Origin: Polyangiales bacterium
Lineage (GTDB): Bacteria > Myxococcota_A > Polyangia > Polyangiales > Ga0077539
Length of the DNA: 64,000 nucleotides
Direction: 5' to 3'
NCBI GenBank assembly: GCA_041389885.1
Contig: JAWKRB010000006.1
Location: 67,101-131,100 of the forward strand
Part shown: positions 4,201 through 57,790 of the stretch, in pieces
Position numbering within the stretch: position 1 is the stretch's first letter
Layout: each line of letters begins with the position of its first letter
Made by a program: the position numbers and the translations under genes
Notes under the pieces: generated by a model
Databases searched by the model: none
Seen by the model: the letters and a program-made list of their open reading frames with translations, nothing else
Told to the model about the DNA's origin: nothing

Positions 4201-4914
4201 ACGCCTCGGGGGCCTCGAGGTTGGTCATGTGGCCCGCCCCGGCGATCTCGACCACCGCCGCGCCGGGGACCCGCGCGGCCATCGCCGCGTGCTCGGCCGG
4301 GGGCGTGACCGCGTCGTGCTCGCCGACGACGAAGAGCGTCGGGACCTTCACGCCCGGCAGGAGCTCCGTGGCGTCGGGGCGGTCGCGCATCGCGCGCAGG
4401 GCGAAGGCGATCGCCTCGGGGCGCTGCGCCGCGCCGAGCTCGCGCACCCGGTCCCGCGCGGACGCGGGGGCGCTCGGCGCGAGGAGGGCGGGGAGCATCT
4501 TCTCCACCAGCGCCGCCGCGCCGTGGCGGCTCACGAGGCTGCTGTTGAGGATCCGCCCGGCCTTCACCGCGGGGGGGTCGCCCGCGGCGCGGGTGTCGGC
4601 GAGCACCAGCGCGCGGAGCAGGCGCGGGTGCCGCGCGAGGAGCCGCAGCGCGACGTAGCCGCCGAGGCTGAGCCCGACGACCACGGCGGGGGGGCGACCC
4701 TCGAGGGCGCGCGCGACCGCGCTCGCGTACACGTCGAGACTCGGGGTCACGTCGGGGCCCGGGAGCGGCGCGGCGCCGAAGCCGGGGAGGTCCGGCGCGA
4801 GGCAGGTCCACCCGTCGAGGGAGAGCGCCTCGACCTGCGCGGACCACATGCGCGCGTCGAGCGGAAACGAGTGAAGAAACATCACCGGAGGACGCGACGC
4901 GCTCATCGCGCGCA
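4160..4914 (-). CDS. Alpha/beta-fold hydrolase
   Basis: VMFLHSFPLDARMW is followed by the GLSLGG nucleophile elbow (GxSxG), and later EHDAVTP and AGHMTNLE give the acid/His. The start codon on the minus strand is near 4905-4914. The ORF track's N-terminal extension is low-complexity and not used. Confidence 0.75.
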
Positions 4915-4934: not shown

Positions 4935-6293
4935 ATGCGTCGCTCGACACGAACCCTCGCGCTCTCGGTCGCGCTCCTCGCGGGCGGGGCGGCGCGCGGC
5001 AACGGGCGCTTTCCGACGGCGCAGCAGGTGGTCTTCGGCGCGGGCGAGCACGCCGGGCGGGTGACCTTCAGGGTGACCTTCGGGCTCCTGGTCTCGAACG
5101 ACGACGCGCGGAGCTTTCGGTGGCTCTGCGAAGAGGCGATGTTCTCGCCCGCCACGCCCGGCCCCGCCGTCGACCCCGCGGTGGAGATCGACGCGCAGGG
5201 GCGAACCCTCTTCGGGTACGGCAGCGGCGTGCGCGCGTGGAGCCCCGACGCGTGCGGGGTGCGCGTGCTCCCTGACCTCGCCGAGCGCGAGGTGATCGAC
5301 CTCGCCATCACCCCCGACCTCCGCACGATCTACGGCGTCGAGACCACCCCAGGGACGCGGCAGTGGGTGCTCCGCGCGAGCGCCGACGACCTCGCGTTCA
5401 CCCGCCAGGGCGCGGGCGTCGCCGGCGTGCGCCTCTCGACCCTCGACGTCGCGCCCTCGGACCCGCGGCGACTCTACGTCGGCGGGCTCGACGAGGGCAC
5501 GCGCGCCCCCGTCGTGCTGCGCAGCGACGACGCGGGCGAGACGCTGCTCCCGGTGAACCTCGCGCCGTCGCTCCTCGGCGACGAGGCCTTCGTCGCAGGC
5601 GTCGACCCGGTCACCGCGGACAATTTCTGGTTGCGTACCAACAGCGGCCTCGGCTCGACCCTGGTGCGCGTGCGCGGCGTGCAGGCGGAGGTCGTGGCGA
5701 GGAGCAGTGACGCGATGCTGGGCTTCGCCCGCTCGGGCGACGGGCGCACCGTCTGGTACGGCTCCGTGGCGGGGGGGCTGTTTCGATCGACCGACGGGGG
5801 AGACCTCTTCGAGCGCGTGAGCGAGCTCGCGATCTACTGCCTCGCCGTGAGGGAGGGCGAGCTCTGGGCCTGCGGAGACTGGCTGCGCGGTCCCTTCGCG
5901 CTGGGGCGGTCCGTCGACGGCGGGCGAAGCTTCACCCCGGTGCTGCGCTTCGAAGACGTCGCGGGCCCGGTGACCTGCGCGGGGGAGGGGGCCGCGAGCT
6001 GCGAGCCCCGCTGGCCCACGCTCCGCGACGACCTGCTCACGCCCCCCAGGCGCGACGCGGGCGCGCAAGACGCCGCCGCCCGCGACGCCGCCCGCGACGC
6101 CCCGAGCGCCGACGCCGGGGCCCTCGGCGAGCTCCGACCGCCCCCGCCGTCAGGGGGCTGCGCGTGCTCCGCGGTCGCCCCAGCCCGACGCCGTCCGCTG
6201 GCCCTCGCGCTCCTCGCCGCGGGGTGGACGATCGCCCGACGACGCCGTCGAAGCCGGGCCTCGGTGATTGCATTTGCGACACATTTGCAATAG
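4935..6293 (+). CDS. Secreted BNR/Asp-box beta-propeller protein with a MYXO-CTERM sorting tail
   Basis: Signal peptide MRRSTRTLALSVALLAGGAARG. Asp-box repeats LRSDDAGETL, FRSTDGGDLF and GRSVDGGRSF match SxDxGxT/F. The C-terminus GGCACSAVAPARRRPLALALLAAGWTIARRRRR is a Cys-containing segment, then a hydrophobic stretch, then a poly-Arg tail, which is the MYXO-CTERM pattern. Confidence 0.7.
   Translation: MRRSTRTLALSVALLAGGAARGNGRFPTAQQVVFGAGEHAGRVTFRVTFGLLVSNDDARSFRWLCEEAMFSPATPGPAVDPAVEIDAQGRTLFGYGSGVRAWSPDACGVRVLPDLAEREVIDLAITPDLRTIYGVETTPGTRQWVLRASADDLAFTRQGAGVAGVRLSTLDVAPSDPRRLYVGGLDEGTRAPVVLRSDDAGETLLPVNLAPSLLGDEAFVAGVDPVTADNFWLRTNSGLGSTLVRVRGVQAEVVARSSDAMLGFARSGDGRTVWYGSVAGGLFRSTDGGDLFERVSELAIYCLAVREGELWACGDWLRGPFALGRSVDGGRSFTPVLRFEDVAGPVTCAGEGAASCEPRWPTLRDDLLTPPRRDAGAQDAAARDAARDAPSADAGALGELRPPPPSGGCACSAVAPARRRPLALALLAAGWTIARRRRRSRASVIAFATHLQ
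6266..6293. promoter_or_regulatory. AT-containing repeat GATTGCATTTGCGACACATTTGCAATAG upstream of the Fur-family gene; candidate Fur/Zur box
   Basis: This is the lowest-GC stretch for several kb. It holds repeated CATTTGC/TTGCAA units 70-100 bp upstream of the Fur-family start codon. Related ATTGCA motifs occur at 9601 and 18856. Confidence 0.35.
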
Positions 6294-6362
6294 AGAGCCC
6301 CCTGCGCTCTGCTTCTGGGCTGTGCGTCGGTTTCGGTCGCGATGACACGTTGGAGGGCGACG

Positions 6363-6809
6363 ATGGCGAGCAAGGTGAGTTCAACGCCCGAGGAGGTTCG
6401 ACGGTTGATTCGCGACGCGGGGCTGCGGGTGACGTCGCCGCGGGTGGCGGTGCTGCTTCGCATGGAGCAGACGCAGGGGCCCGTGACCCACGCTGACATC
6501 GCCGACGCGCTCTCGCCTCAGGGCTGGGACCGGGCGACGATCTACCGCAACCTGACCGACCTCACCGAGGCGGGGCTGCTGCGGCGCACCGACATGGGCG
6601 ACCACGTGTGGCGCTTCGAGCTGGCGCGGGGCGACGCGAAGGGCCACGAGAGCGGGCTGCACCCGCATTTCGTGTGCAACGCCTGCGGCGACGTGACCTG
6701 CCTCGAAGACGACGCGATCGAGATCCAGGTCGGTCGCGGCGCGCCGAAGTCGCTGCGCGGGCTCGAGGTGGAGATTCAGGTCAAGGGGCGATGTGATAAC
6801 TGCGCCTGA
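6363..6809 (+). CDS. Fur-family metalloregulator (Zur/Fur-like)
   Basis: RVTSPRVAVLLRMEQTQGPVTHADIADAL…ATIYRNLTDLTEAGLL is a winged-helix DNA-binding domain. HPHFVCNACGDVTC and the C-terminal GRCDNCA are the Fur-family metal-site Cys/His clusters. The gene sits directly upstream of a metal permease. Confidence 0.8.
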   Translation: MASKVSSTPEEVRRLIRDAGLRVTSPRVAVLLRMEQTQGPVTHADIADALSPQGWDRATIYRNLTDLTEAGLLRRTDMGDHVWRFELARGDAKGHESGLHPHFVCNACGDVTCLEDDAIEIQVGRGAPKSLRGLEVEIQVKGRCDNCA

Positions 6810-6812
6810 CCC

Positions 6813-8552
6813 TTGAACGCCTCCCTCGCAACGACGCTCGGACTCTCCCTCGCCGGGCTCTCGGTGGGCCCTTGCCTCGTGGCGCTGGGGCGCTCCCGGG
6901 GGCGTTGGCGCGCGGGGGTCGAGGGCTTCTCCCTCGCGGTGGTCCCGGGGCTGATCGCGCTGCGGCTGTTCCCGCACGTGCTGGAGGAGCTCGGGGCGCT
7001 GGCCTTCGGCCTCGCCGCCGCGGGCTACCTCGCGCTGCGCCTGGCCGACCGACACGACCACGCGCGCGCGGATCACGCCTCGGGGGCGACCGCCGTGGGC
7101 GTCGCCATCGTGCTCCCCGCGCTCATCGCGCACGCGTTCACCGACGGCGCGGCGCTGGCGATGGCGGGCGCGTCGGGGGGGCGCGCGCACATGGGCCCCG
7201 AGCTCGCGGGCGCGCTGGTGCTCCACCGGCTGCCCGAGGGGATGTTCCTCGCCACGGCCCTGGTGCCGGCGCTGGGTTGGCGGCGCACGATCCACCGGCT
7301 CATGGCGATGGGGCTGGCGACGGTGCTCGGGGCCGCGCTGGGCGAGTCGCTCCTGCGCAGCGTGCCCGACGCGCTCTTCGACGGGGTGATGGCCTTTGGG
7401 CTCGGCGCCATGCTCCGCCTCGCGGTGCACGCGCACGACGCGGGGCCCGACGGCGCGAGCGCCCGCGCGGCGTCGGGGGCGGCGTTTCTCCTGGGCGTCG
7501 CGGCGCTGTTGGTCATCCCCGACCCCCACTCGATCCTCGACGCGGCGCACCCGCTGGAGCTCTCCTTCGCCCGCGCGGCGGTGGCGCTCTTCGTCGAGTC
7601 GGCGCCGGCGGTGCTGCTGGGCATCGTGGTGGCCGCGGCGGTTCGGCGCGTGCGCCTGCCCTTCCCTGGCTCTCGCCTGGCCGTCGAGGGGCGCTGGCGT
7701 CAGGCCGCGCAGGGGGTGATCTTCGGACTGCCGATGCCCATGTGCTCGTGCGGCGCGGTCCCCTCGGCGCGGGAGCTGCTGGGGCAGGGCGCGCCGCTGG
7801 GGGCGGTGCTGGCCTTCTTGATCGCCGCGCCCGAGCTCGACCTCGGCGCGATCGCGCTGTCGCAGGGTCTCCTGGGTCACGAGGTCACCCTCCTGCGCGT
7901 CGCGGCGGGGGCCCTCACGGCCCTGCTCGTCGGCGCCGCGCTGGGAGGCGCCGAGACGCCGCGGCCGCTGCCCGCCGCTCCGGTCGAGCCTGACCGCGGC
8001 GTGCTGCACGGCACCGCGCGCGCGACCGACCAGATCGCCGCGTGGTTCGTGCTGGGCATCGTCGCCGCGGCGACCCTCGAGGCGGCGGTGGCCCCGGGCG
8101 CTCTCGCCTCGGCGCCGAAGGCGCTGCGCTACGCCTTCGCGCTCCTCGGGGCGCTGCCGATGTACCTCGCGCCGCACGCGTCGATCCCCGTGGCCGCGGT
8201 GCTGGTTCACAAGGGGCTGGGTCTCGGTCCGGCGGTGGCGCTGCTCATGGGCGCGTCGGGGGCCAACTCGTGGGTCCTGCGGCTCATCGCCGAGGCGCGA
8301 GGGCGAGCCGCGGCCGCGCGCTTCGGCGCCGCGATGCTGGCGACCTCGGTGCTCGTGGGCGCGGCGCTGGAGCGGCTGGTGGCGGCCGACGCGATCCCCG
8401 AGGTGCACGCGCTCGCGGCGCACGACCACGGGGTCGTCGAGGTGGCCTCGGCGGTGGCGCTGGGCGCGTTGCTGGTCGGGAGCGTGCTGCGCAGCGGTCC
8501 TCGGCAGTGGTTCAAATCGTTGCAGCCGGTGCGGGCGGAGCACACGCACTGA
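6813..8552 (+). CDS. Polytopic metal permease: N-terminal ZIP-like half fused to a C-terminal DUF318/ArsP-family permease half
   Basis: The N-half has IAHAFTDGAALA and LHRLPEGMFLATAL, which resemble the ZIP motifs HxxxEG and HxxPEG. The C-half has GLPMPMCSCGAVPSARELLGQG, the conserved Cys motif of the PF03773 (YraQ/ArsP) permeases. It starts 4 nt after the Fur-family gene ends. Confidence 0.6.
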   Translation: MNASLATTLGLSLAGLSVGPCLVALGRSRGRWRAGVEGFSLAVVPGLIALRLFPHVLEELGALAFGLAAAGYLALRLADRHDHARADHASGATAVGVAIVLPALIAHAFTDGAALAMAGASGGRAHMGPELAGALVLHRLPEGMFLATALVPALGWRRTIHRLMAMGLATVLGAALGESLLRSVPDALFDGVMAFGLGAMLRLAVHAHDAGPDGASARAASGAAFLLGVAALLVIPDPHSILDAAHPLELSFARAAVALFVESAPAVLLGIVVAAAVRRVRLPFPGSRLAVEGRWRQAAQGVIFGLPMPMCSCGAVPSARELLGQGAPLGAVLAFLIAAPELDLGAIALSQGLLGHEVTLLRVAAGALTALLVGAALGGAETPRPLPAAPVEPDRGVLHGTARATDQIAAWFVLGIVAAATLEAAVAPGALASAPKALRYAFALLGALPMYLAPHASIPVAAVLVHKGLGLGPAVALLMGASGANSWVLRLIAEARGRAAAARFGAAMLATSVLVGAALERLVAADAIPEVHALAAHDHGVVEVASAVALGALLVGSVLRSGPRQWFKSLQPVRAEHTH

Positions 8553-8783: not shown

Positions 8784-9128
8784 TCAGGCGCTGGCGACGC
8801 TGCCGTGGTCGTCGCAGTGCGCGCCGTGGGGATGGTGCAGGTGCCCCGACACGAGGTAGTCGGTGTGGTCGCCGTGGGGGACGGCCTCGTGCCCGCAGCC
8901 CGGACCGTGCGCGTGCGCCGCGTCGTGGGCGCTGCACGCGTGGTCGGGGGTGCAGTCGGCGGGGTTGGCCGCGCTCACGTCGAGGCGGTGCTCGTCGACG
9001 TGGCCGCCGTGGGGATGGTGCAGGTGGCCGTCGTGGAGGTAGTCCACGTGGTCGGCATGGCGCACCGAGGCGTGGCCGCAGTCGGGGCCGTGGGTGTGGG
9101 TGTGGTCCTTGTGTTCGCTGCAGCTCAT
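8784..9128 (-). CDS. His/Cys-rich metal-binding protein with an internal tandem duplication
   Basis: The 114-aa product is two copies of HGPxCGHxxVxHxDHxDYLxxGHLHHPHGxH (residues ~12-45 and ~75-108). Its start overlaps the arsR stop (ATGA), so the two are translationally coupled. Confidence 0.65.
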   Translation of the reverse strand: MSCSEHKDHTHTHGPDCGHASVRHADHVDYLHDGHLHHPHGGHVDEHRLDVSAANPADCTPDHACSAHDAAHAHGPGCGHEAVPHGDHTDYLVSGHLHHPHGAHCDDHGSVASA

Positions 9129-9514
9129 GGTTCGTCCTCCTCGGGGTCGTGGGCGTGGGGCGCCTCGTCGGCGTGCTCCAGCGCGTTGGCGATCAGCTCC
9201 GCCACGTGGGCGTCGCTGAGCGCATAGAAGATGTGCTTTCCCTGTCGTCGTCGTCGGACCAGGCCCTCGGCGCGCAGCAGCCGGAGCCGCTGCGAGACCG
9301 TTGAGAGGCCCTCTCCCTCAGCGAGGTCGCTCACGCATCGCTCACCCGCCGCGAGCAGCGCGAGCAGACGAAGCCGCGAGAGGTCGCCCATCGCGCGAAA
9401 GATCGACGCCGCTCGCTCAAACGCCGCCGCGCTCGGCGCCCGCGGGAGCGAGGCCGCGGGGTGCTCAGGGTCGCCCGGCGTGCAGGTCAGGTCGTGCGAA
9501 GGAGAGGTCTTCAT
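9125..9514 (-). CDS. ArsR/SmtB-family metalloregulator
   Basis: FRAMGDLSRLRLLALLAAGERCVSDLAEGEGLSTVSQRLRLLRAEGLVRRRRQGKHIFYAL is an ArsR HTH with an alpha3-like metal-site Cys. The C-terminus is His-rich (EAPHAHDPEEDEP). Confidence 0.8.
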   Translation of the reverse strand: MKTSPSHDLTCTPGDPEHPAASLPRAPSAAAFERAASIFRAMGDLSRLRLLALLAAGERCVSDLAEGEGLSTVSQRLRLLRAEGLVRRRRQGKHIFYALSDAHVAELIANALEHADEAPHAHDPEEDEP

Positions 9515-9542
9515 TCAGTGCGTCAGTTGACCGACTGATGAA
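9510..9542. promoter_or_regulatory. Imperfect inverted repeat TTCATTCAGT–N13–ACTGATGAA overlapping the arsR start; candidate ArsR/SmtB operator
   Basis: In ttcattcagtgcgtcagttgaccgactgatgaa the inner arms TCAGT/ACTGA are perfect. The repeat lies immediately 5' of, and overlaps, the arsR start codon (9512-9514, minus strand). Confidence 0.4.
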
Positions 9543-9600
9543 GTGTGTAGGTGATGAATCAATGGCCGTCAATGGCCCTCGCGCAACGGGTTTCGCGGTG

Positions 9601-9619
9601 CAATTGCAACGCAATTGCG
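9601..9619. promoter_or_regulatory. Repeat CAATTGCAACGCAATTGCG in the arsR/CDF intergenic region
   Basis: Two ATTGC(A) units sit 5 nt apart and contain the CAATTG palindrome. The site is in the 300-bp gap between the CDF stop and the arsR start, and resembles the motifs at 6266 and 18856. Confidence 0.3.
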
Positions 9620-9818
9620 GGGGCTGAGGCGGAGGCGCCCGGACGACCCGACAGGCGCTCGCAGCAACGCCACGCCCGACCTTCACCCCCGAGCCGAGGG
9701 ACGCATGGGTCGCCGACGCGGCGCGCTTCACGAAGTGCATCGAGAAGTGACGGGCCCGGGCGGGCCTGGGCGGGCCTGGCTCCATGCAGGCGGTCGCAGC
9801 GGCGCTCAACCCTCGCCG

Positions 9819-10742
9819 CTACGCCTCGCGCACCTCGAGGGTGAGGTGCGAGATGGGGCCGACGGCCTTGAGGCGCTCGCGGACCTCGCGCTGCGCGACC
9901 GGCCCCGCGCTGTGGAGGGTGGCCGCGCAGTACCACTGGCCCGCGGTGGGCTCCCAGAGGTGCAGATCGAGCACCGTCGCGCCCGAAGACTCGAGCACCG
10001 CGCGCACCTCGCGCACCGCGAGCTCGGAGGGCACGCGATCGAGGAGCGGGCGCGCGGTGTCGCGAATGAGCCCGACGCCCCACTTCGCGATGAGCGCGCT
10101 GCCCACGAGCGCCGAGAGCGGATCGAGAAAGCGCCATCCGAAGCGCATCCCCAGCACCAGCGCCGCGATGGCGAAGACGCTGGTCACCGCGTCGGCGATG
10201 ACGTGGAGGTACGCGCCGCGGAGGTTGGGGTCTCCGTGGTCGTGCCCGTGGTCGTGCCCGTGGTCGTGCCCGCGGTCGTGCCCGTGGTCGTGCCCGGCGG
10301 GCATGAGCAGCCGCGCGCTGACGAGGTTCACGACGAGCCCGACGACGGCGACGGCGAGGGCCTCGCCGTAATGGATCGCGCTGGGGTGCAAGAGCCTGTG
10401 CACCGACTCGACGACCATCTGCGCGGCGACGGCGAGGAGGGCGAGGGCGTTGGTGTACCCCGCGAGGGCGTGGACCTTCGCCGTGCCGAAGGAGTACTCG
10501 CCGCGCCCCGACCGCGTGCGGGCGTACCACCACGCGAGGGCCGAGATGGCCAGGGCGCCCGCGTGAGTCGCCATGTGCCAGCCGTCCGCCGTCAACGCCA
10601 GGGAGTGGGACCAGGTGCCCACGGCGATCTCGGCGACCATCATCGACAGGGTGAGCCCGATGGTCCACCAGGTGCGCCGCTCGCCCGCGCTCGCGCCTTC
10701 GACCGAAAGCGGCTGCATGCAATGGAATTCGACCTGGCTCAT
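9819..10742 (-). CDS. Cation diffusion facilitator (CzcD/ZitB-like) with a His-rich cytoplasmic loop
   Basis: Six CDF TM helices are present (TM2 HSLALTADGWHMATHAG, then TM5 HVIADAVTSVFAIAAL). The loop reads GHDHGHDRGHDHGHDHGHDHGD. The start could be 10742 or 10790. Confidence 0.8.
   Translation of the reverse strand: MSQVEFHCMQPLSVEGASAGERRTWWTIGLTLSMMVAEIAVGTWSHSLALTADGWHMATHAGALAISALAWWYARTRSGRGEYSFGTAKVHALAGYTNALALLAVAAQMVVESVHRLLHPSAIHYGEALAVAVVGLVVNLVSARLLMPAGHDHGHDRGHDHGHDHGHDHGDPNLRGAYLHVIADAVTSVFAIAALVLGMRFGWRFLDPLSALVGSALIAKWGVGLIRDTARPLLDRVPSELAVREVRAVLESSGATVLDLHLWEPTAGQWYCAATLHSAGPVAQREVRERLKAVGPISHLTLEVREA
10236..10295. repeat. Five tandem copies of a 12-bp unit (GTGGTCGTGCCC) encoding the (HDHG)n loop of the CDF
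   Basis: The repeat is seen directly. One unit carries a single substitution (GCGGTCGTGCCC). Confidence 0.8.
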
Positions 10743-10840
10743 CGTCGCGTCGGCCTCAGCCTCGCACGTCGACGGCCCCACCGCACGCATCGCCGAGTCC
10801 CCCTGCTCACTGCGACCGGGCTTCGCTATGGTACCGCCCC

Positions 10841-15792: not shown

Positions 15793-16608
15793 TCAGCGCG
15801 GCGAGGACGGCGCGGCGCTGAAGCTCGGTAGAAAGACCCCCTGCACGCCCCGCGCGTTCTCGATGAACGCGCGGCCTACGTTGTCGCTCGGGTCGAAGGT
15901 GCGAACGCCCTCGGGGGACGCGGGCTTCGCGAGGAGCTCGGAGAAATCTGCGCCGCGGAACCACCCGCGCGGGTCGACGCGCACCGTGAGCGAGCCGCCG
16001 TCGGTGAGCTCGAACGCGCCCGGCACCCCGCGCACGCGGCGCGCGACCTCGAGGGGGCGCTGAGGCGTCGCCAGCGACTCGTTGACCTCGAGCGCGCCGT
16101 CGAAGGTCACGCGCTGCTCGCCCCGCTCGGCCACGCCCGCGACGCGCACGGCGGCGCCCTGCATCGCGGGGTCGTTGAAGTACCAGAACTCCAGGGTGTT
16201 CACGCGCTCGAGCACGCCGTCGCCGCCGCCGGGGACGGTCTGCAGCGCGGGGTCGAGGAGGTCGACGACGACCTGGGTGGTGACCTGTCCCACGATGCGC
16301 CCCGCGCCGAGGTGGAGCGCGCCGTCGGCCCAGGCCGAGCGCACGAAGAGGTCGCTCACGCGGTCGCCGAGGGTGCGGCGCGCGACCACCGGGGTGAGGG
16401 TGTTGAGGTAGATCGGGCCGACGGCCATGCGCGCGTCGGTGAGGGTCACGCGCCAGCCCTGGTCGTTGTCGAAGGTCAGGGGCGCGCGCGCGTCGCGCTC
16501 GACGCCGCCGACGCGCACCTCGAAGGAGGCGCGGCCCCCGGAGGTGGCGTCGCCGCAGCCGACGAGGGCGAGGAGGCTCATCGCGAGGAGGGACGATCGG
16601 CGTGTCAT
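15793..16608 (-). CDS. Lipoprotein, hypothetical (coupled to the TonB-dependent receptor)
   Basis: MTRRSSLLAMSLLALVGCGD is a lipobox. The start overlaps the TonB-dependent receptor stop (ATGA at 16605-16608). Confidence 0.55.
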   Translation of the reverse strand: MTRRSSLLAMSLLALVGCGDATSGGRASFEVRVGGVERDARAPLTFDNDQGWRVTLTDARMAVGPIYLNTLTPVVARRTLGDRVSDLFVRSAWADGALHLGAGRIVGQVTTQVVVDLLDPALQTVPGGGDGVLERVNTLEFWYFNDPAMQGAAVRVAGVAERGEQRVTFDGALEVNESLATPQRPLEVARRVRGVPGAFELTDGGSLTVRVDPRGWFRGADFSELLAKPASPEGVRTFDPSDNVGRAFIENARGVQGVFLPSFSAAPSSPR

Positions 16609-18836
16609 GAGGACCTCGTGGGCGCACCGTGCCGCGCGGCGGCGGATCCGAGGTGCACCGTGAAGACGACGAAGAGCGAGCGCGGCGGGCCGGCCGCGAA
16701 GTGCTGCGCCGCCACCAGCGTGGGGAAGGGGCGCGAGCGAAAGTCTGAGACGAAGTTGTACTGACCCCAGCGGTACTGGGCGTCGAGGAGGTTCTGCGCG
16801 ATGAAGCCCAGCTCGACGTGCGACCACCTCGCCGCGAGCTGGGCGTCGACGGTGAACACCGCGTCGCCCGTCTCGGCGAGGGGCAGCGGGCGCGGGGCCA
16901 CGTAGGTCACCCCGAGTCCACCCGTGAGAACCACCCGGCGCCCCCGGAGGTTCCACGGGAGCGGCGCGTTGGCGCTCGCGTCGAGGCGCGCCACCACCTG
17001 CGGCACGTAGGGGACGAGGAACCCGTCGTCGAAGGTCGCGCGCGCCCAGGTGACGTGCGCGGAGACATCGAAGCGGGGATGCGTCGCCCGCACCGCGCCC
17101 AGCGCCCCCATGCGCGTGGTGCCCCCCGCGAGGCTGTTGCGCCCCTGGGTCTCGTCGAAGATCAGGTCCTGCCCGACGTGCGTGTAGAAATACAGCGCGC
17201 GGGCCGAGAGGCGCACCCTTCCCAGGTGTCGGTCGTAGACGACCCCGCCCTCGAGGGCGAGGGCCGGCGAGTAGGGCAGCGTCTGGTCGTTGCCCAGGTA
17301 CACCGGGTCGGCCGAGCGCGCGCCGAGGCCCGCGGCGAGGGCCACGGTCACCCCCTTGAAGGGGCCCAGAAACACGCTCCCGCGGGGCTGGAGCGCGAAG
17401 CCCCCGCTGCTGCGCCGGGTGGTCGGGTCGCGGGGGCCCACGCGGTCGGCGGAGTAGCAGGCCACGTCGAGGTCCGCGCCGCGGAGCGAGACGTCGTGCA
17501 CCGCGCAGCGGTCGAGGGCGTTGTACTGAAACAGGTCGGCGCGGAGCCCCCCGCGGAGCACCAGCCAGCGCGTGAGCCGCAGCTCGCTGTCGACGTAGAG
17601 CGCGACGTTGCCCACCTCGTTGTCGAGGTCGAAATCGCTGCGGTACGCGATGTCGGTGCCCGAGCGGAGCCGCCGCTGGGTGCTGTCGACGCGCACGAAC
17701 CGCCCGTACAGCCCGACCTCCAGCGACTGCCGGTAGCCGCCGAGGGTGGTGCTGAAGCGCCCCGACGCGCGCGCCCCCGCCTCGACGCTCTGACCGTTCT
17801 GGTCGATGAGGTCGCCGCGCTGGGGGTGCGGGCTCTGCCAGGGCTGCTGCACGTCGAGCAGAAAGCCCGTGAAGTTCTCGCGCAGGCGAAAGCTGCGCAC
17901 CGAGCCCCAGGCTTGCGCCTTGAGCGTCGAGCTTGGACGGGTTGACTCGACCTCGACGCTGAGCAGGTGCCGCGAGACCTCGCCCCCCTGCGTCGCGTCG
18001 TAGGTGTCGTAGAAGCCCACGCGCCCCGCCGCCACGTCGTCGTCGCGGAGCACGCCCGCGCTGCGGTAGCGCGTGAGGTAGCTCGCGCCGAAGAGGCGCC
18101 AGGTGATCGGGCCGCTGCGGTGCTCGTACTGGCCGTTGGCCGTCGCGCGGTCGTACCCGCGGTTCTGCCCGTAGCCCGCGGAGGTGCCGACCTCGGCGCC
18201 GCCGAAGGTGCCCGGCGACTCGCCCTCGGGGGCCCAGATCGCCAGCGCGCGGTGCGTGTCGAAGCTCCCGTAGCGGTACTGCAACACCGCGCCGCGGGTG
18301 GGCACCCGGAGCGTGAACTGCGCGCTGCCCGCCACGGCGAAGTCGCCCTGGTGAGGGTCGAAGGGACCCTCGAGCACGCGCACCGAGTCGATGAGCTCGG
18401 GGATGATGAAGTGCGTGTCGGCGTGGCCCTGCCCGTGAGGGTGCGCGGGCTCGTTGATCGGGACGCCGTTGACGGTGAACTCGAGGTCCTGCCCCAGGCG
18501 GGCGTCGAAGCCGCGGAGAAAGACCTGCTCGGCGTGGCCCTCGCCCAGGCCGTTGGAGAGAAAGATCCCCGGCGCGAGGCGGAGCACGTCTGAGGCGTTG
18601 CCCCGGGGCACGTTCGCCAGCGCACCCACCGTGACGTCGACCTCGCCCGCGGCGCGAGAGGGCGGGCGTCGGGCGCTCACCACCCCCTCGCCGATCACCT
18701 GCTCGGGGGCTGCCGCGGGCTCAACCGCTTGCGCCGCAGGGGGATCGGACCGCTCCGGGGCGCGCTCCTGCGCCCACGCGGCGCGAGGCCCTGCCATCGC
18801 GAGCGAGAGACCCAGCAGCGACCACGTCGACTTCAC
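16605..18836 (-). CDS. TonB-dependent outer-membrane receptor
   Basis: Signal peptide MKSTWSLLGLSLAMAGPRAAWA. The plug region reads DVLRLAPGIFL…VFLRGF…VPINEP…IDSVRVLEGP. The ~740-aa length fits a beta-barrel. Confidence 0.8.
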   Translation of the reverse strand: MKSTWSLLGLSLAMAGPRAAWAQERAPERSDPPAAQAVEPAAAPEQVIGEGVVSARRPPSRAAGEVDVTVGALANVPRGNASDVLRLAPGIFLSNGLGEGHAEQVFLRGFDARLGQDLEFTVNGVPINEPAHPHGQGHADTHFIIPELIDSVRVLEGPFDPHQGDFAVAGSAQFTLRVPTRGAVLQYRYGSFDTHRALAIWAPEGESPGTFGGAEVGTSAGYGQNRGYDRATANGQYEHRSGPITWRLFGASYLTRYRSAGVLRDDDVAAGRVGFYDTYDATQGGEVSRHLLSVEVESTRPSSTLKAQAWGSVRSFRLRENFTGFLLDVQQPWQSPHPQRGDLIDQNGQSVEAGARASGRFSTTLGGYRQSLEVGLYGRFVRVDSTQRRLRSGTDIAYRSDFDLDNEVGNVALYVDSELRLTRWLVLRGGLRADLFQYNALDRCAVHDVSLRGADLDVACYSADRVGPRDPTTRRSSGGFALQPRGSVFLGPFKGVTVALAAGLGARSADPVYLGNDQTLPYSPALALEGGVVYDRHLGRVRLSARALYFYTHVGQDLIFDETQGRNSLAGGTTRMGALGAVRATHPRFDVSAHVTWARATFDDGFLVPYVPQVVARLDASANAPLPWNLRGRRVVLTGGLGVTYVAPRPLPLAETGDAVFTVDAQLAARWSHVELGFIAQNLLDAQYRWGQYNFVSDFRSRPFPTLVAAQHFAAGPPRSLFVVFTVHLGSAAARHGAPTRSS

Positions 18837-18855
18837 AGGCCACCCTCTAGTCTTT

Positions 18856-18872
18856 TTGCATCACGATTGCAA
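18856..18872. promoter_or_regulatory. TTGCATCACGATTGCAA motif in the divergent TonB-receptor/M1-peptidase promoter region
   Basis: The motif sits in a relatively AT-rich 147-bp intergenic region and shares ATTGCA half-sites with the sites at 6266 and 9601. Confidence 0.3.
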
Positions 18873-18983
18873 CTACCTCTCTCTTGCAGTTCAACCTGCG
18901 ATGCGATTTCAGGGAGAGGGGCCCTCGGGGTCGGGGAGAATTGGTGCGGGCGCGGCGAAGGGGTGTATGGCCGCGGTCGGCTG

Positions 18984-45403: not shown

Positions 45404-47929
45404 CTAGCGCCCCGCCGCCGCGGGGGCCGCGATGGGCGTGGGCGTGGTGAGCAGCGGCGAGCCGAGCACCGCGGGGGCGAGGACCGAGGACGGCGCCGCG
45501 GCGGGGGCCGAGGAGGGCGCGCCGCTGCTGCTCTCTTCGGACGGGAGGTCGATGGCCTCGGAGGGCACGTGCGGCGGCGGCGTTCGGGGTCGGGTGGCCG
45601 ACTCGAACTCGGCGCGGGCGCGCAGGTCGCGGATCGACTGACGTATCTCTTCGACCAGCCCGTTGGTGCGCGTGTAGTCCCGCGGGGCCTCGTACTCGGC
45701 CTGGTCCGAGAACACGAAGTACCGGTCGAGGAACTCCTGCCGCTCGCGCATCTTGCGCTCGAAGATCCGCCGCAGGTCGCTCTGGTCGCGGATCACGTAC
45801 GGCGTGAGGAAGAGCAGCAGGTTCGAGCGCTGCTGCGTGCGCGTCGTGCGGCGAAACAGCGCGCCCAGGATCGGGATGTCGCCGAGGATCGGCACGCGCT
45901 CCTCGCTCTGCGTGTCGGCCGTGCGGATGAGCCCGCCGATGACCACGGTGTTCTGGTCCTGCACCACCGCGACGGTCTTCGCCGTGCGTCGGTTGATGGT
46001 CACGGCGCCGAGCTGACCGCCCGAGCTCGCGCCCACCTCGGAGATCTCCTCGTCGATCTCCAGGCGCACCTCGTCCGAGTCGTTCACGTGGGGCGTGATG
46101 CGAATCTTCGTGCCGACGTCCTGGCGAGGGGCCGCGAAGCCGCCGCCGAGGCCCAGGCCCGCGAGGCCCGCGAGGCCCGCGGTCGCCGACGACCCGCCCG
46201 CCAGCGCCGCGACGTTGCCGATGCCGCCCACGTTCGTCTGCAGCGGCACGTTCTGCCCGACGTTGATGTCGGCCGGCGAGTTGTCGGTCGCGAGGATGTG
46301 CGGCGTCGAGAGCACGTTGGCGTCGCCGCTCGACGCGAGCGCGTTGAGGGTGACGCCGAAGGACGGGAGCGAGATCCCCACGCCCGGCAGCAGGTTCTGC
46401 GAGCCCGCGAGCTGCGGCCCGCGCACGCCGAGGGCGAGCCCCGAGAGGGAGTCCTGCCCCAGCAGGATGCTGTTGAGCGCGTTGAACCCGCCGATGGCGA
46501 CGCCGTTGTTCCCGGTGCTGTCGAGGGGCAGGGCGCCGTGAAAATTCAAGCCCAGGGTGTTCGAGCGGTTCACCGACAGCTCCATCACCACGGCCTCGAT
46601 GAACACCTGCCGCCGGGCCCGGTCGAGCTCGTCGATCACCCTCCGGAGGCTCACGTAGTCCCGCGGCGACGACGTGATGATGAGCGCGTTGCTGGGCTTG
46701 TCGGCGCTGATGCGCACGGGGCCCTCGAACACCGCGTTGGTGCCCCGGCTGGCCTGCCCCGCCGCGGTGCCGCCCGTGCGGCCGCCGTTGGCGACGGCGT
46801 TGAGGGTTGTCGCGACCTCGTCGGCCGTGGCGTGCTGCAGCCGGAGCACCCGCACCTGGCCCTCGCCTTCGATGGACGTGTCGAGGCGGCGCATGAGCTC
46901 GAGCACGCGGAGGTACATCCGCTGAGACGCGATGATCACCAGAGAGTTCGTGCGGTCATCGGGGAGGATGCGCGAGACGCTGCCCGCGGTGTTCCCGGCG
47001 GGGGCGCCCGCCGCGGGGCGAGGCGTGCCCGCGCGCCCCGAGAGGATCTCGGTGAGCCTCGTGGCGAGCTCGCTCGCGAGGGCGTGGTGCACGGGCTCGA
47101 CCCAGATCTGCTCGCCCACGCTCGGCACGTCGATCTCGCCGAGGATCTGCACCATGCGACGTATGCCCGCCGCGGTGTCGGTGATGATCAGCGCGTTCGT
47201 CGCCGCGTGCGGGGTGATGTCGCCGTCGCGAGACTTGAAGTGACCCAGCACCGTCGCGGCCTCGTCGGTCGCGATGTTCGCGAGGCGAACGATGCGGGTG
47301 ATGTACCGGTCGCCCGTGGGCGTCGAGTCGCCCGGCCCGTAGGTGGGCACGGGCTGCGTCGCGATGCCCGCGCTCTCCTCGATCTTGAGGTAGCGACCCG
47401 CGGGGACCACGGTCATCCCGTTCACCTGCAGCACCGAGACGAAGGCCTGGTAGGCCTCGCCCGGCGTCACCTTCGTGGGCGAGTAGATGGTGGTCTTGAT
47501 CGACCGCACCTTGCCCGGAATGATGAAGCGGCGGCCGGTGATGTTGCCGATCGCCCGCACGAGGTCGGGGAGGTCGGCGTCCTGGAGGTTGAAGGTGATC
47601 CGCGCGCCGGGCGGCAGCGCCCGAAACTCGATGCCAGGATCGAAGTCGTGGATGTTCGCACCGTTGCCAGCGGCCTCGGCCACCGACCCGATGGTGGGCG
47701 TCGTCACCCGCTGCCCCGGCGCGTTCCCCGCGGCCGTGGGCGCGGCGGGCGCGGCGGCCGTCGGCGGCCTCGCGGCCACCGGCGGGATCGTCGGCGCGGC
47801 GCCGATGGCGGTGGGGTTGATCGCCCGACGCCTCGCAGGCTGCGCCCACGTGACCAGGGGCAGCAGGAGCGTCGCGAGCGCGAGGGCCGCGCTGAGGATC
47901 TTGGAAGGCGGTGTATTCCGTGCGGTCAT
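45404..47929 (-). CDS. gspD: Type II secretion outer-membrane secretin GspD
   Basis: Signal peptide MTARNTPPSKILSAALALATLLLPLVTWA. N0-N3 domains and a secretin C-domain are present (VVIGGLIRT…VPILGDIPILGALFR). Confidence 0.85.
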   Translation of the reverse strand: MTARNTPPSKILSAALALATLLLPLVTWAQPARRRAINPTAIGAAPTIPPVAARPPTAAAPAAPTAAGNAPGQRVTTPTIGSVAEAAGNGANIHDFDPGIEFRALPPGARITFNLQDADLPDLVRAIGNITGRRFIIPGKVRSIKTTIYSPTKVTPGEAYQAFVSVLQVNGMTVVPAGRYLKIEESAGIATQPVPTYGPGDSTPTGDRYITRIVRLANIATDEAATVLGHFKSRDGDITPHAATNALIITDTAAGIRRMVQILGEIDVPSVGEQIWVEPVHHALASELATRLTEILSGRAGTPRPAAGAPAGNTAGSVSRILPDDRTNSLVIIASQRMYLRVLELMRRLDTSIEGEGQVRVLRLQHATADEVATTLNAVANGGRTGGTAAGQASRGTNAVFEGPVRISADKPSNALIITSSPRDYVSLRRVIDELDRARRQVFIEAVVMELSVNRSNTLGLNFHGALPLDSTGNNGVAIGGFNALNSILLGQDSLSGLALGVRGPQLAGSQNLLPGVGISLPSFGVTLNALASSGDANVLSTPHILATDNSPADINVGQNVPLQTNVGGIGNVAALAGGSSATAGLAGLAGLGLGGGFAAPRQDVGTKIRITPHVNDSDEVRLEIDEEISEVGASSGGQLGAVTINRRTAKTVAVVQDQNTVVIGGLIRTADTQSEERVPILGDIPILGALFRRTTRTQQRSNLLLFLTPYVIRDQSDLRRIFERKMRERQEFLDRYFVFSDQAEYEAPRDYTRTNGLVEEIRQSIRDLRARAEFESATRPRTPPPHVPSEAIDLPSEESSSGAPSSAPAAAPSSVLAPAVLGSPLLTTPTPIAAPAAAGR

Positions 47930-47934
47930 GCGGC

Positions 47935-49032
47935 TCAACGGATGTGAAAGTCGATGTTCACCGGCTGACCGTTGCGGGTCACCGAGATCTGCAGGTTGTC
48001 GCTCGTGCGCAGGCGGGAGTAGGCCTCGAGCGCGCGGTCGGGTGAGGCGATGTCGAGGCCGTTGATGCGGTTCAACACGTCGCCGTTGCTCAGCCCCAGG
48101 CGGCCGAGCAGCGAGTTGCCGCGCACGCCGAAGAGCTGAACGCCGATCACGCGGCCGCCCTCCTCTCGCGGCATGATGCGCGTCGTGCGCATGAGCTCGG
48201 CCTGGTTCTCGAGGATGCGATCCACCGCCGACCTCGGGATGTTGAACTCGTTCGGCCCCACCCGCTGGATCTGATCGAAGACCGCTCCGAGGGCGCCTCC
48301 CGGAGCGGGCCCCGCGGGGGCGGGCGCCGCGACCGCGACCGGCGCCGGGGGGGCGGCGGCGCGCTCGGGCATGCGCTGCGCGAGAAAGCACCGCGGGCCG
48401 CCCCCGGGGGGGCGGAGCAGCACGTACGCGCCGATGTAGCTGTCGGGCAGGTCGGGGTTCGGCGGGCACTGGGCGATGATCCCGACGCTCCGGCCGTCGA
48501 TGGTGTGGCCGAGGCGGTAGGGCATGGCCGCGCCGCTGCCGGTCGGCTGCACGAACACGAAGGACCACAGCATGTCTTCGCTCACCACCGCGCCGACGAG
48601 CTTCGCCTGCGTCTCGCAGGGGAGCGGGTGCGGCGCGCCCTGCCGCGTCGCGAGGAGCGGGTCACAGGCCGCCGGCGGGAGGATCACCTCGTTGTCGGGC
48701 GCCTCGGCGCCGCCGTCGGAGACCGTCGCGTCGGGGTCGCCGGCGTCGCAGTCGAGGCAACCCGCGTCGGAGTCGAACACGTTCCGGTGCACGATCGCCG
48801 TGCGGTCTCGCACGTGGAGGTTCTGCACCTCCGGGGCGATCGTGCGGGCCCGCGCCGCGGCGTTGGGCAGCGGGCGCGCGAGGGAGTCGGTGTCGGCGGC
48901 GAAGAGGCTCGCGGCGAAGAGGTCGTTGGTGCCGCGCGCGGCGAAGAACGCGCACGGGACCAGCGCCGCGAGGGTCACCACCCACGCGTGTCGCCGCAGA
49001 ACGTTCTCAAGCTTTGCCAGGATGCTTCGCAT
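47935..49032 (-). CDS. gspC: Type II secretion protein GspC
   Basis: The protein is bitopic (WVVTLAALVPCAFFAARG) with a C-terminal PDZ domain (GVQLFGVRGNSLLGRLGLSNGDVLNRINGLDIASPDRALE). It lies immediately upstream of gspD. Confidence 0.65.
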   Translation of the reverse strand: MRSILAKLENVLRRHAWVVTLAALVPCAFFAARGTNDLFAASLFAADTDSLARPLPNAAARARTIAPEVQNLHVRDRTAIVHRNVFDSDAGCLDCDAGDPDATVSDGGAEAPDNEVILPPAACDPLLATRQGAPHPLPCETQAKLVGAVVSEDMLWSFVFVQPTGSGAAMPYRLGHTIDGRSVGIIAQCPPNPDLPDSYIGAYVLLRPPGGGPRCFLAQRMPERAAAPPAPVAVAAPAPAGPAPGGALGAVFDQIQRVGPNEFNIPRSAVDRILENQAELMRTTRIMPREEGGRVIGVQLFGVRGNSLLGRLGLSNGDVLNRINGLDIASPDRALEAYSRLRTSDNLQISVTRNGQPVNIDFHIR

Positions 49033-56440: not shown

Positions 56441-57790
56441 TCACTCGAAGATGCCGCCGGGGACGCGGTCGCGGCCAGAGTTCACGCGGTCCTGCCAGGT
56501 GTCGACCCCGCGGTCGTTGGGGACCTCGACCATCGTGATGCAGCCCTCGACCGGGCAGACCAGCGCACAGAGGTTGCAGCCGACGCACTCGGGCTCGTCG
56601 ATCCAGGGCACCCGGTCGCCCGCGAGCGCGCCGATCACCTGAGGCACGGGCGCCTTCGCCATGCCTTCGGCGTGGGCGTGCGGGGGGCGCGGACGGTCGG
56701 CGGGGCCCGTGAAGATGCACTGATGCGCGCCGTCTTGACAGGCCGCGACGCACTTCTGACAGCCGATGCACAGGTCGGGGTTGATCGAGGCCACGACCTG
56801 GTAGTTCAGGTCGAGCTCGCCCCACTCCTTGTAGGCCGGCACCGCGCTGCCGCGGAATTGATCAAGGGTGAGGCCGCGCTCGTCGAGGAAGTTCGACAGC
56901 CCCTGGATCATGTCCTCGACGATGCGAAACCCGTGATGCATCACCGCGGTGCACACCTGGACGCTGGTCGAGCCGAGCGCGATGAACTCCGCGGCGTCGC
57001 GCCAGTTCGACACCCCGCCGATGCCCGAGATGGGGAGCCGCGACGTGCGCGGGTCGCGCGCCAGCTGCGCGATCATGTGCAGCGCGATGGGCTTCACCGC
57101 GGGGCCGCAGTACCCGCCGTTGGTCGAGCCGCCGCCCACGCGGGGCAGGGGAACTCCCCGCTCGAGGTCGACGCCCACGATCGACTTGATCGTGTTGATG
57201 AGCGACAGGCCGTCGCAATTGCCCTCCAGGGCGGCGTAGCCCGGCTCGAGGATGTCTCCGACGTTGGGCGTGAGCTTCACCAGCACGGGCGTGCGCGCGT
57301 ACTCCTTCACCCACGAGGTGATCTCGGTGAGCACCTTGGGCTCCTGACCCACGGCGCTGCCCATGCCGCGCTCGCACATGCCGTGCGGGCAGCCGAAATT
57401 CAGCTCCAGCCCGTCGCAGCCGGTGTCTTCGGAGCGCTTGATGATCTCGCGCCACTCGTCCTTCGTCTCGACCATCAGCGAGACGATCACCGCGTGGTGG
57501 GGGTAGCGCTTCTTGACCTCGGCGATCTCGCGGAGGTTCACCGCCAGCGGCCGGTCGGTGATGAGCTCGATGTTGTTGAAGCCCATCACCCGACGGCCCG
57601 CGAAGTCGACGCCGCCGAAGCGCGACGAGACGTTCACGATGGGGTTGCCCAGGGTCTTCCACACCGCGCCGCCCCACCCGGCGTCGAAGGCGCGCATGAC
57701 CTGATCGCCGGTGTTCGCCGGCGGCGCCGACGCGAGCCAGAAGGGGTTCGGGCTCTTGATGCCGCACATGTCAATCGAGAGGTCAGCCAT
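56441..57790 (-). CDS. preA: NAD-dependent dihydropyrimidine dehydrogenase subunit PreA (DHOD-like TIM barrel with two 4Fe-4S ferredoxin motifs)
   Basis: The FMN-barrel motifs are DGLELNFGCPHG and GIGGVSNWRDAAEFIALGSTSVQVCT. The C-terminal ferredoxin Cys clusters are CIGCQKCVAACQ and CVGCNLCALVCP. Confidence 0.8.
   Translation of the reverse strand: MADLSIDMCGIKSPNPFWLASAPPANTGDQVMRAFDAGWGGAVWKTLGNPIVNVSSRFGGVDFAGRRVMGFNNIELITDRPLAVNLREIAEVKKRYPHHAVIVSLMVETKDEWREIIKRSEDTGCDGLELNFGCPHGMCERGMGSAVGQEPKVLTEITSWVKEYARTPVLVKLTPNVGDILEPGYAALEGNCDGLSLINTIKSIVGVDLERGVPLPRVGGGSTNGGYCGPAVKPIALHMIAQLARDPRTSRLPISGIGGVSNWRDAAEFIALGSTSVQVCTAVMHHGFRIVEDMIQGLSNFLDERGLTLDQFRGSAVPAYKEWGELDLNYQVVASINPDLCIGCQKCVAACQDGAHQCIFTGPADRPRPPHAHAEGMAKAPVPQVIGALAGDRVPWIDEPECVGCNLCALVCPVEGCITMVEVPNDRGVDTWQDRVNSGRDRVPGGIFE

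Follow-up and report, generated by a model that had tools for sequence, protein, structure and literature searches.

Candidate sites for two metal sensors upstream of an arsR operon in a Polyangiales bacterium, with a Nur-type box shared by three loci

Introduction

Which of the short repeats in front of an arsR gene are regulatory sites, and does one regulator connect this gene to other loci with similar repeats? These questions are raised by a 64-kb stretch of contig JAWKRB010000006.1 from a Polyangiales bacterium (the window; overall ~73% G+C), in which a gene for an ArsR/SmtB-family metalloregulator is preceded by several repeated strings. An initial annotation had described this segment as the arsR promoter and operator region, correctly as it turned out, and all the strings which it listed were found in place. 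Comparison of orthologous loci nevertheless gives a different selection of functional elements. With moderate confidence, we assign positions 9524-9620 as the control region for an operon of two genes (arsR and a gene for a His/Cys-rich metal-binding protein) that carries sites for two metal sensors: a putative ArsR operator at the promoter and, further upstream, a putative box for a Fur-family regulator which recurs at two other loci. The elements concerned are the following.

9524-9545, minus strand: candidate ArsR operator, an imperfect 7-8-7 dyad of 22 bp whose position is fixed across 11 orthologous loci
9544-9549, minus strand: -10-like hexamer TACACA, with the TA..CA positions conserved
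9567-9572, minus strand: -35 hexamer TTGACG, of which TTGAC is invariant in all 11 orthologues
9587-9591, minus strand: invariant ACCCG pentamer (columns A50-G54 of alignment A3)
9598-9620, no strand assigned: predicted distal Fur-family (Nur-box-type) site, from the Nur-box consensus match, a position weight matrix (PWM) and conservation
6268-6290, plus strand: predicted Fur-family box in front of the Fur-family gene, TTGCAT plus TTGCGA-CACAT-TTGCAA, with TAGAGA following directly
18856-18872, no strand assigned: predicted Fur-family box in the divergent region between the TonB-receptor and M1-peptidase genes, from the consensus match

Promoter and candidate ArsR operator

The orthologous arsR loci that were compared encode proteins with 95% (L023), 87% (L038), 81% (L024/L030), 73% (L025), 70% (L026/27 and L032-34), 68% (L031), 66% (L028/29) and 57% (L001) identity to the ArsR of the window; within the genome collection the closest arsR, with 57% identity, is that of an uncultured Myxococcales metagenome-assembled genome. 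Eleven orthologous loci (57-95% protein identity) share one layout, consisting of TTGAC, 21-22 nt, a 7-8-7 dyad, 5-9 nt and the ATG. The distance between the -35 and -10 elements is 17 nt in nine of the 11, and T92, A93, C96 and A97 of the -10-like element are invariant in alignment A3. Conservation shows the layout at 9524-9572 to be that of a sigma-70-type promoter, predicted to serve the arsR operon. The AATGGCC direct repeat reported in the initial annotation overlaps this promoter and does exist (two copies of TCAATGGCC(G/C) at 9559-9578, with a period of 10 nt), but it is not conserved: it is lost already in the 95% orthologue L023, where its counterpart reads GGGCGGTTGACCGGATTCGC, and the invariant part inside it is TTGAC alone, the -35.

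In the window the dyad consists of CACTTCA (9545..9539), TCAGTCGG and TCAACTG (9530..9524), and it stops 9 nt 5' of the arsR ATG at 9514. Its consensus over the orthologues is CACTTCA-N8-T(C/G)AA(C/G)TG, immediately after TA..CA, and in L025 and L038 the arms match perfectly, at 7/7 positions (CACTTCA-TCAGTCGT-TGAAGTG). Starting within the -10 element, the dyad extends over the expected transcription start (near 9537). The pattern is unique within the window, with no copy at either of the two CDF gene promoters. On the strength of this conservation, the 22-bp dyad at 9524-9545 is probably the ArsR operator.

Some observations weigh against this assignment. The dyad arms match at just 5/7 positions in the window itself, and the dyad does not fit the canonical ArsR/SmtB 12-2-12 consensus (compare AATACCTGAACA-GA-TGTTCAAGTATT). 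The -10 element is weak as compared to the consensus, and a consensus promoter scan of 9400-9900 found nothing.

In the distant orthologue L001 (2387-2410), the arsR start codon falls inside the right dyad arm, TGAAATG. With two mismatches, this stretch (TTGCACAAGCGTTGAAA) is at the same time a match to the 6-5-6 box described below, and the ArsR operator and this box may overlap in L001.

A 6-5-6 motif at three loci

The Nur box of Streptomyces coelicolor, tTGCaa-N5-ttGCAA, has a 6-5-6 arrangement and was defined by DNase I footprinting (PMC2691836). This literature consensus, TTGCAA-N5-TTGCAA, served as an a-priori pattern, with at most two mismatches allowed over the 12 specified positions. 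It has three matches in the window, at 6274-6290 upstream of the Fur-family gene (one mismatch), at 9604-9620 distal to arsR (two mismatches) and at 18856-18872 between the TonB-receptor and M1-peptidase genes (one mismatch), as against 0.09 in Markov shuffles. For random sequence of 8 kb at 55% GC the expectation is 0.21, and the probability of at least three hits is 0.001. A PWM trained on other genomes only places the window's five best positions all at these three loci. The initial annotation had proposed that ATTGCA half-sites are common to the three loci; this holds in the form of one motif, TTGCAA-N5-TTGCAA, which is conserved in orthologous loci. The raw count of ATTGCA was dropped as evidence, since the six occurrences in the window (five of them inside the three flagged sites) are not above chance, with 4.3 expected; it is the paired arrangement that exceeds chance. 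The looser pattern TTGC-N7-TTGC, which was picked after seeing the sites, gives four matches, exactly at the three loci, versus 0.55 expected. Readings of the box as a 7-3-7 element or a hexamer array were dropped in favour of the 6-5-6 consensus published for Nur, which fits the sites.

Both L023 and L038 retain the sequence TTGCAT-TTGCGACACATTTGCAA-TAGAGA (6268-6296) upstream of the Fur-family gene without change. In L035-37 (84% Fur identity) the site is almost intact despite entirely different flanks, and L032-34 (64% Fur identity) have TTGCAACTGCAAT at this position. The box in the TonB/M1 region reads TTGCAA-TCGTG-ATGCAA on the minus strand and is followed, after 6 nt, by TAGAGG (18849..18844). 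It is identical in L038 (receptor 87% identity), and in L040 (receptor 67%), where a histidine kinase replaces the M1 peptidase upstream, the corresponding sequence is TTGCAATGCTGTTGCAT, 6 nt and TATATG. The promoter of the TonB receptor can thus be written as TTGCAA-N17-TAGAGG and that of the Fur-family gene as TTGCAT-N17-TAGAGA, together TTGCAw-N17-TAGAGr, so that the TonB/M1 box covers the -35 and the spacer of the TonB-receptor promoter.

A second conserved block of the TonB/M1 region, CTTGCAGTTCAACCTGCGATGCGATTTCAG at 18884-18915, is near-identical in L038, and L040 shares AATCGCAGG; the block may represent the promoter of the M1 peptidase or else a second site. The next-best PWM match in the window is ATGCAATGGAATTCGAC at 10717-10733 (14.5 bits), a half-site only. 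It overlaps an internal ATG (10718..10716) of the dmeF gene that agrees better with the beginning of the DmeF profile than does the annotated start at 10790, so the dmeF start is uncertain and a regulatory half-site at this position is a possibility.

The distal box upstream of arsR

The arsR member of the set comprises the 17-mer TTGCAA-CGCAA-TTGCGG at 9604-9620 and a flanking hexamer at 9598-9603, and is located 25-48 bp upstream of the -35. It scores 19.7 bits with the PWM from other genomes, which exceeds every shuffle maximum. The repeat noted in the initial annotation is GCAATTGC, of which there are two palindromic copies, at 9600-9607 and 9611-9618, with a period of 11 nt. Both copies are present, but the promoter-proximal one alone is conserved: the conserved core is TGCAATTGCA at 9599-9608, and the distal copy has become CGCAACCGCG in L023. 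The six orthologues of at least 73% identity share TGCA-N3-GCA(y)C-N5-ACCCG-N14-TTGAC at fixed spacing, with an invariant TGCA-N3-GCA core. The ACCCG pentamer of these six lies between the distal box and the -35, exactly 14 nt from the latter and 5 nt from the former.

The case for this box is weakened on three counts. Orthologues with an identity of 70% or below (L026, L028, L031, L032), which have different upstream neighbours, lack it; the distal half-site is poorly conserved even in close relatives; and ACCCG is explained by neither operator model. A sigma-54 promoter at the TTGCA elements was also considered and ruled out, since inspection by eye found no GG at the -24 spacing on either strand.

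The arsR operon and its surroundings

The genes in and around the locus are arranged as follows.

9125-9514, minus strand: arsR, ArsR/SmtB-family metalloregulator, 129 aa (Pfam HTH_5, NCBIfam)
8784-9128, minus strand: His/Cys/Asp-rich open reading frame (ORF) of 114 aa (translation)
6363-6809, plus strand: Fur-family regulator, 148 aa (Pfam FUR)
6813-8552, plus strand: ArsP_1/SO_0444-like permease, 579 aa (profile matches)
10790-9819, minus strand: DmeF-type CDF gene (NCBIfam DmeF, 334 bits vs a cutoff of 250)
divergent from the DmeF-type CDF gene: second CDF gene (gene map)
16605-18836, minus strand: TonB-dependent receptor gene (Pfam Plug domain), divergent from the M1-peptidase gene
same neighbourhood, minus strand: alpha/beta hydrolase (gene map)
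same neighbourhood, plus strand: 459-aa ORF (gene map)

The ArsR protein matches Pfam HTH_5 (E=1.9e-7) and the NCBIfam model NF033788 for metalloregulator ArsR/SmtB (75.5 bits vs a cutoff of 55), and its translation contains an alpha5-type motif D-x-H-x10-H-x2-E (LSDAHVAELIANALEHADE). The His-rich 114-aa ORF overlaps arsR by ATGA, which is consistent with translational coupling, and every orthologous arsR locus has this overlap followed by a His-rich ORF of 114-117 aa. The encoded protein consists of two internal repeats, HxHGPxCGH..H.DH.DYL..GHLHHPHG.H.D.H, and is better conserved than ArsR, with 63 of 114 columns invariant over seven orthologues. It has no match in Pfam, NCBIfam or the PDB, and 952 representative clusters match it at E<=1e-3. 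It is a member of a widespread protein family without Pfam, NCBIfam or PDB match, and is reminiscent of nickel-storage proteins.

The Fur-family gene and the permease gene on the plus strand converge on arsR and the His-rich ORF on the minus strand, the two pairs being separate operons. Upstream of arsR, on the same strand, lies the DmeF-type CDF gene, which has its stop at 9819. The region that the initial annotation called a 300-bp leader is the spacer between this stop and arsR; it includes ~200 bp of GC-rich sequence that is unconserved among orthologues. No Rfam family was found at E<=1 in 9300-10000, and no intrinsic terminator was found after dmeF. Just 3' of the dmeF stop, in the unconserved GC-rich part, GGGCGGGCCTG is present in two tandem copies at 9756-9780.

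Binder of the boxes and metal sensed

The Fur-family gene most likely starts at ATG 6363, as judged from conservation and the presence of a GGAGGG ribosome-binding site; in L023 an alternative ATG at 6342 is replaced by GTG, and the conserved stretch sets in at the ribosome-binding site. The 6-5-6 box precedes the Fur-like gene in five lineages, L032 and L001 included. The Fur-like gene adjoins arsR in six lineages, and the pair of Fur-like and permease genes is found next to arsR in L023, L032-34, L038 and the P0010 contig. That one regulator might control all three loci had been suggested in the initial annotation. The shared, conserved motif and the linkage to the Fur-family gene support this as the most plausible arrangement, and the regulator encoded at 6363-6809 is most likely the protein that binds the three boxes.

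Against the PDB, the Fur-like protein gives the best scores with Fur structures (38.7 bits), followed by Zur at 24-26 bits, and the Nur structure 3eyy comes at rank 16, behind Fur, PerR and Zur (19.9 bits, E=0.005). The score and rank of 3eyy indicate that the Fur-like protein is not a Nur orthologue. It contains two CxxC pairs. The nickel-site residues of Nur are His70, His72 and His126; the stretch that, as judged by eye, presumably corresponds to the His70/His72 region reads LLRRTDMGDH and is without H-x-H.

Gene content around the box offers another approach to the metal. The locus L001 carries a perfect box, TTGCAATGCAGTTGCAA (802-818), upstream of a dihydroorotase gene, followed by arsR and the His-rich ORF. 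The dihydroorotase is of the PRK09060 (pyrC2) type (683 bits vs a cutoff of 482). A second L001 box, at 4652-4668, is located between a gene for a COG0523 GTPase, the best match of which (201 bits) is below that model's cutoff, and a Fur-like gene whose product is 50% identical to that of the window. Zur regulons typically include genes for COG0523 proteins, pyrC paralogues and TonB-dependent receptors, along with autoregulation (PMC2770081, PMC6103462). Together, the COG0523 and pyrC2-type genes of L001, the TonB receptor and the putative autoregulation point to a zinc-responsive, Zur-like regulon, as far as an association of boxes with genes can do so. On this basis zinc is our preferred candidate for the metal sensed, if by a narrow lead over an even chance.

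Several features fit this assignment poorly. The similarity of the Fur-like protein to Nur is weak, and it remains under every NCBIfam equivalog cutoff (for Zur, 27 bits vs 167). None of its cysteines is aligned with C79 of ScZur or C76 of MtZur, two actinobacterial Zur proteins. Moreover, nickel or cobalt would suit the Nur-type box, the His-rich protein and the neighbouring DmeF exporter just as well.

The strongest competing explanation is that the common regulator senses nickel or cobalt, being functionally Nur-like, and that the arsR/His-rich operon forms a nickel/cobalt homeostasis island together with dmeF. The form of the box is identical to that of the nickel-specific Nur box, the CDF gene upstream encodes a Co/Ni exporter of the DmeF type with a score well over its cutoff, and the regulator lacks the Zur regulatory cysteine. 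On the other hand, the Fur-like protein is not a Nur orthologue by its 3eyy score, the COG0523 and pyrC2-type genes of L001 plus the TonB receptor are a classic Zur set, and at the dmeF promoter no box was found beyond the half-site. Regulation by nickel or cobalt is possible but doubtful.

The permease gene at 6813-8552, which is co-transcribed with the Fur-like gene, matches ArsP_1, and its match to the SO_0444 Cu/Zn efflux family is below the cutoff. That an exporter-like permease should share an operon with a putative uptake repressor is odd. A literature search for a Myxococcus Zur or Fur box returned nothing relevant. With the known Zur profiles, no sites were detected close to paralogs of ribosomal proteins in the deltaproteobacterial genomes examined, Myxococcus xanthus included (PMC3087516).

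Proposed control of the operon

Transcription of arsR and the His-rich gene would start from the sigma-70-type promoter with the -35 TTGACG at 9572..9567, a 17-nt spacer and the weak -10 TACACA at 9549..9544. An ArsR dimer is proposed to bind the dyad at 9545..9524. Because the dyad starts in the -10 and covers the expected transcription start, apo-ArsR would block initiation and so repress its own operon, whereas binding of metal at the alpha5 site (D-x-H-x10-H-x2-E), most likely zinc and possibly cobalt or nickel, would release it. The Fur-family regulator, encoded 3 kb away, is predicted to bind the boxes at arsR, in front of its own gene and at the promoter of the TonB receptor. At the latter two the box supplies or overlaps the -35 and the spacer, from which we would expect the metal-loaded Fur-like protein to repress by occlusion.

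The arsR box is positioned differently. It lies outside the polymerase footprint and at a fixed distance, which favours a modulatory role: the Fur-like protein may modulate the ArsR-gated promoter rather than occlude it, most likely by helping or activating it under metal sufficiency. There is precedent for both parts of such a scheme, since Zur activates zitB from a box upstream of the -35 (PMC5472717) and controls the ArsR-type regulators aztR and FTN_0395 (PMC6103462).

As the main alternative, the distal box could mark a weak second promoter, P2 (TTGCAA-N17-TTGCGC), which is repressed by the Fur-like protein, so that the operon is also induced by metal starvation. This architecture resembles TTGCAw-N17-T(A/T)G... 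at the TonB and Fur sites, the position 17 nt downstream is occupied in the orthologues by TTGCGC, CTGAGA, TAGCGG or TTGGCC, and in L001 a box-controlled pyrC2 gene precedes the arsR operon. The putative -10 of P2 is, however, very poor and unconserved, its transcripts would still run into the ArsR operator, and the promoter scanner called no P2. We regard such a promoter as unlikely and retain the modulatory role of the distal box at the ArsR-gated promoter.

A speculative extension of the latter role is that a zinc sensor of the Fur family in Myxococcota, non-orthologous to Nur, independently adopted a Nur-type box, and that it occludes the promoters of uptake genes and its own promoter and helps the ArsR-gated promoter from about -70. 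If true, two metal sensors would jointly set the expression of an undescribed, widespread His/Cys-rich metal-buffer protein.

Other explanations of the sites

Quite improbable in our view is that the boxes are bound by some other transcription factor than the adjacent Fur-family protein. The fact that the Fur-like protein is not a Nur orthologue would allow for this, but in five lineages the box precedes the Fur-like gene, in L001 it is adjacent to it, and the only known binder of a 6-5-6 motif of this kind is a Fur-family protein.

The initial annotation had placed the ArsR operator elsewhere, namely in an inverted repeat TTCATTCAGT-N13-ACTGATGAA that spans the arsR start codon. This repeat is present, with arms at 9510-9519 (TTCATTCAGT) and 9534-9542 (ACTGATGAA); the latter arm lies in the conserved block and overlaps the left half of the conserved dyad, and in the distant orthologue L001 the ATG does fall inside the right arm of the dyad. 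The arms, however, form their nine pairs just with a 1-nt bulge (TTCAT-T-CAGT vs TTCATCAGT), and the element was not reported by a repeat search. A stem of at least nine pairs with one bulge was found in 7.7% of shuffles of 9480-9640, so that the inverted repeat alone is not beyond chance. Furthermore, the ATG-side arm (9510-9519) has diverged in L038 (87%), L024/L030 (81%) and L025 (73%): ACTGAATGAA is replaced by AGCGAATGAA in L038, ATCCCATGAA in L024 and CACCCGATGC in L025. This divergence implies that the inverted-repeat pairing is not the conserved element, whereas the 7-8-7 dyad is conserved in all 11 loci, and an operator over the start codon is accordingly very unlikely.

Base composition varies along the window. 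The stretch 9500-9599 upstream of arsR has a GC content of 54% and is one of the three spots of lowest GC, the other two being 6251-6350 and 18801-18950; all three motif sites fall in these spots. A fourth low-GC spot (47901-48000, 58% GC) and a third exact copy of GCAATTGC (57215-57222) do not reach the box threshold. Least credible of all is that the TTGCAA hexamers are mere -35-like elements or a product of AT-rich promoter composition, with no common regulator: TTGCAA is one substitution off TTGACA, the sites are in the most AT-rich spots and the TonB and Fur promoters have one hexamer where the -35 would sit, but the hexamer pairs are kept at exactly 11-bp spacing across orthologues while the flanks diverge, three hits are well above the expectation even for 8 kb of 55% GC sequence, the arsR site is at least 25 bp upstream of a real, conserved -35, and the motif corresponds to an experimentally footprinted Fur-family box (PMC2691836).

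Comparison with known systems

Similar to SmtB-smtA, ZiaR, CzrA and AzuR-nmtA, the operon described here involves an ArsR/SmtB repressor with an alpha5-type site, and as in SmtB-type operators an imperfect dyad is located at or just after the -10 of the regulator's own operon. The metallothioneins SmtA and NmtA are functional analogues of the cargo, a small metal-binding protein. The systems differ in the operator, which has a 12-2-12 arrangement with core TGAACA-N2-TGTTCA in known ArsR/SmtB operators and 7-8-7, CACTTCA-N8-T(C/G)AA(C/G)TG, in the present case. They also differ in the cargo, here a His-rich tandem-repeat protein without Pfam family instead of the Cys-rich metallothioneins SmtA and NmtA, and in gene organisation, with regulator and cargo co-transcribed here, unlike in the SmtB-smtA-type systems compared.

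Linkage of an ArsR-family and a Fur-family zinc sensor is known from the mycobacterial genes Rv2358 (SmtB) and furB (Zur). The arrangement in the window differs from that pairing in that the operons are separate and convergent and a predicted Fur-family box is located upstream of arsR.

The box itself has the same hexamer, 5-bp spacer and 17-bp length as that of S. coelicolor Nur (PMC2691836). The binder is a Fur-family protein in S. coelicolor and probably also here, and in both cases boxes overlap the promoters of metal-uptake genes. The regulator of the window is non-orthologous to Nur, has the two CxxC pairs and a zinc-type-looking regulon, and belongs to the Myxococcota rather than the Actinobacteria. 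With Zur regulons the predicted regulon has several targets in common, namely a TonB-dependent receptor, a COG0523 GTPase and a dihydroorotase of the pyrC2 type, besides autoregulation. At zitB, a Zur box is likewise located upstream of the -35 of a gene for metal excess, although 8 bp upstream as compared to 25-48 bp for the arsR box, and the pairs of Zur with aztR or FTN_0395 are likewise cases of a Fur-family sensor wired with an ArsR-family sensor. Described Zur boxes are AT-rich n-1-n palindromes (PMC2691836), whereas the box here is 6-5-6. The Fur-like protein further differs from Zur proteins in scoring below the Zur equivalog cutoff and in lacking the regulatory cysteine of the two actinobacterial Zurs.

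Implications

The concepts involved are all established, and the locus is a case of ordinary metal-homeostasis wiring not yet described for this lineage. What is new is a candidate lineage-specific operator, the combination of a Nur-type box and a Zur-like regulon in Myxococcota, and a conserved His-rich cargo. The 7-8-7 dyad provides a testable candidate operator for an uncharacterised clade of ArsR/SmtB repressors, and the His/Cys-rich family, which has no Pfam entry, is flagged as the cargo of the circuit. The three boxes offer a first candidate recognition site and core regulon for a Fur-family regulator in Myxococcota, probably Zur-like, and indicate that the occurrence of the Nur-type 6-5-6 box extends beyond the nickel regulators of Actinobacteria.

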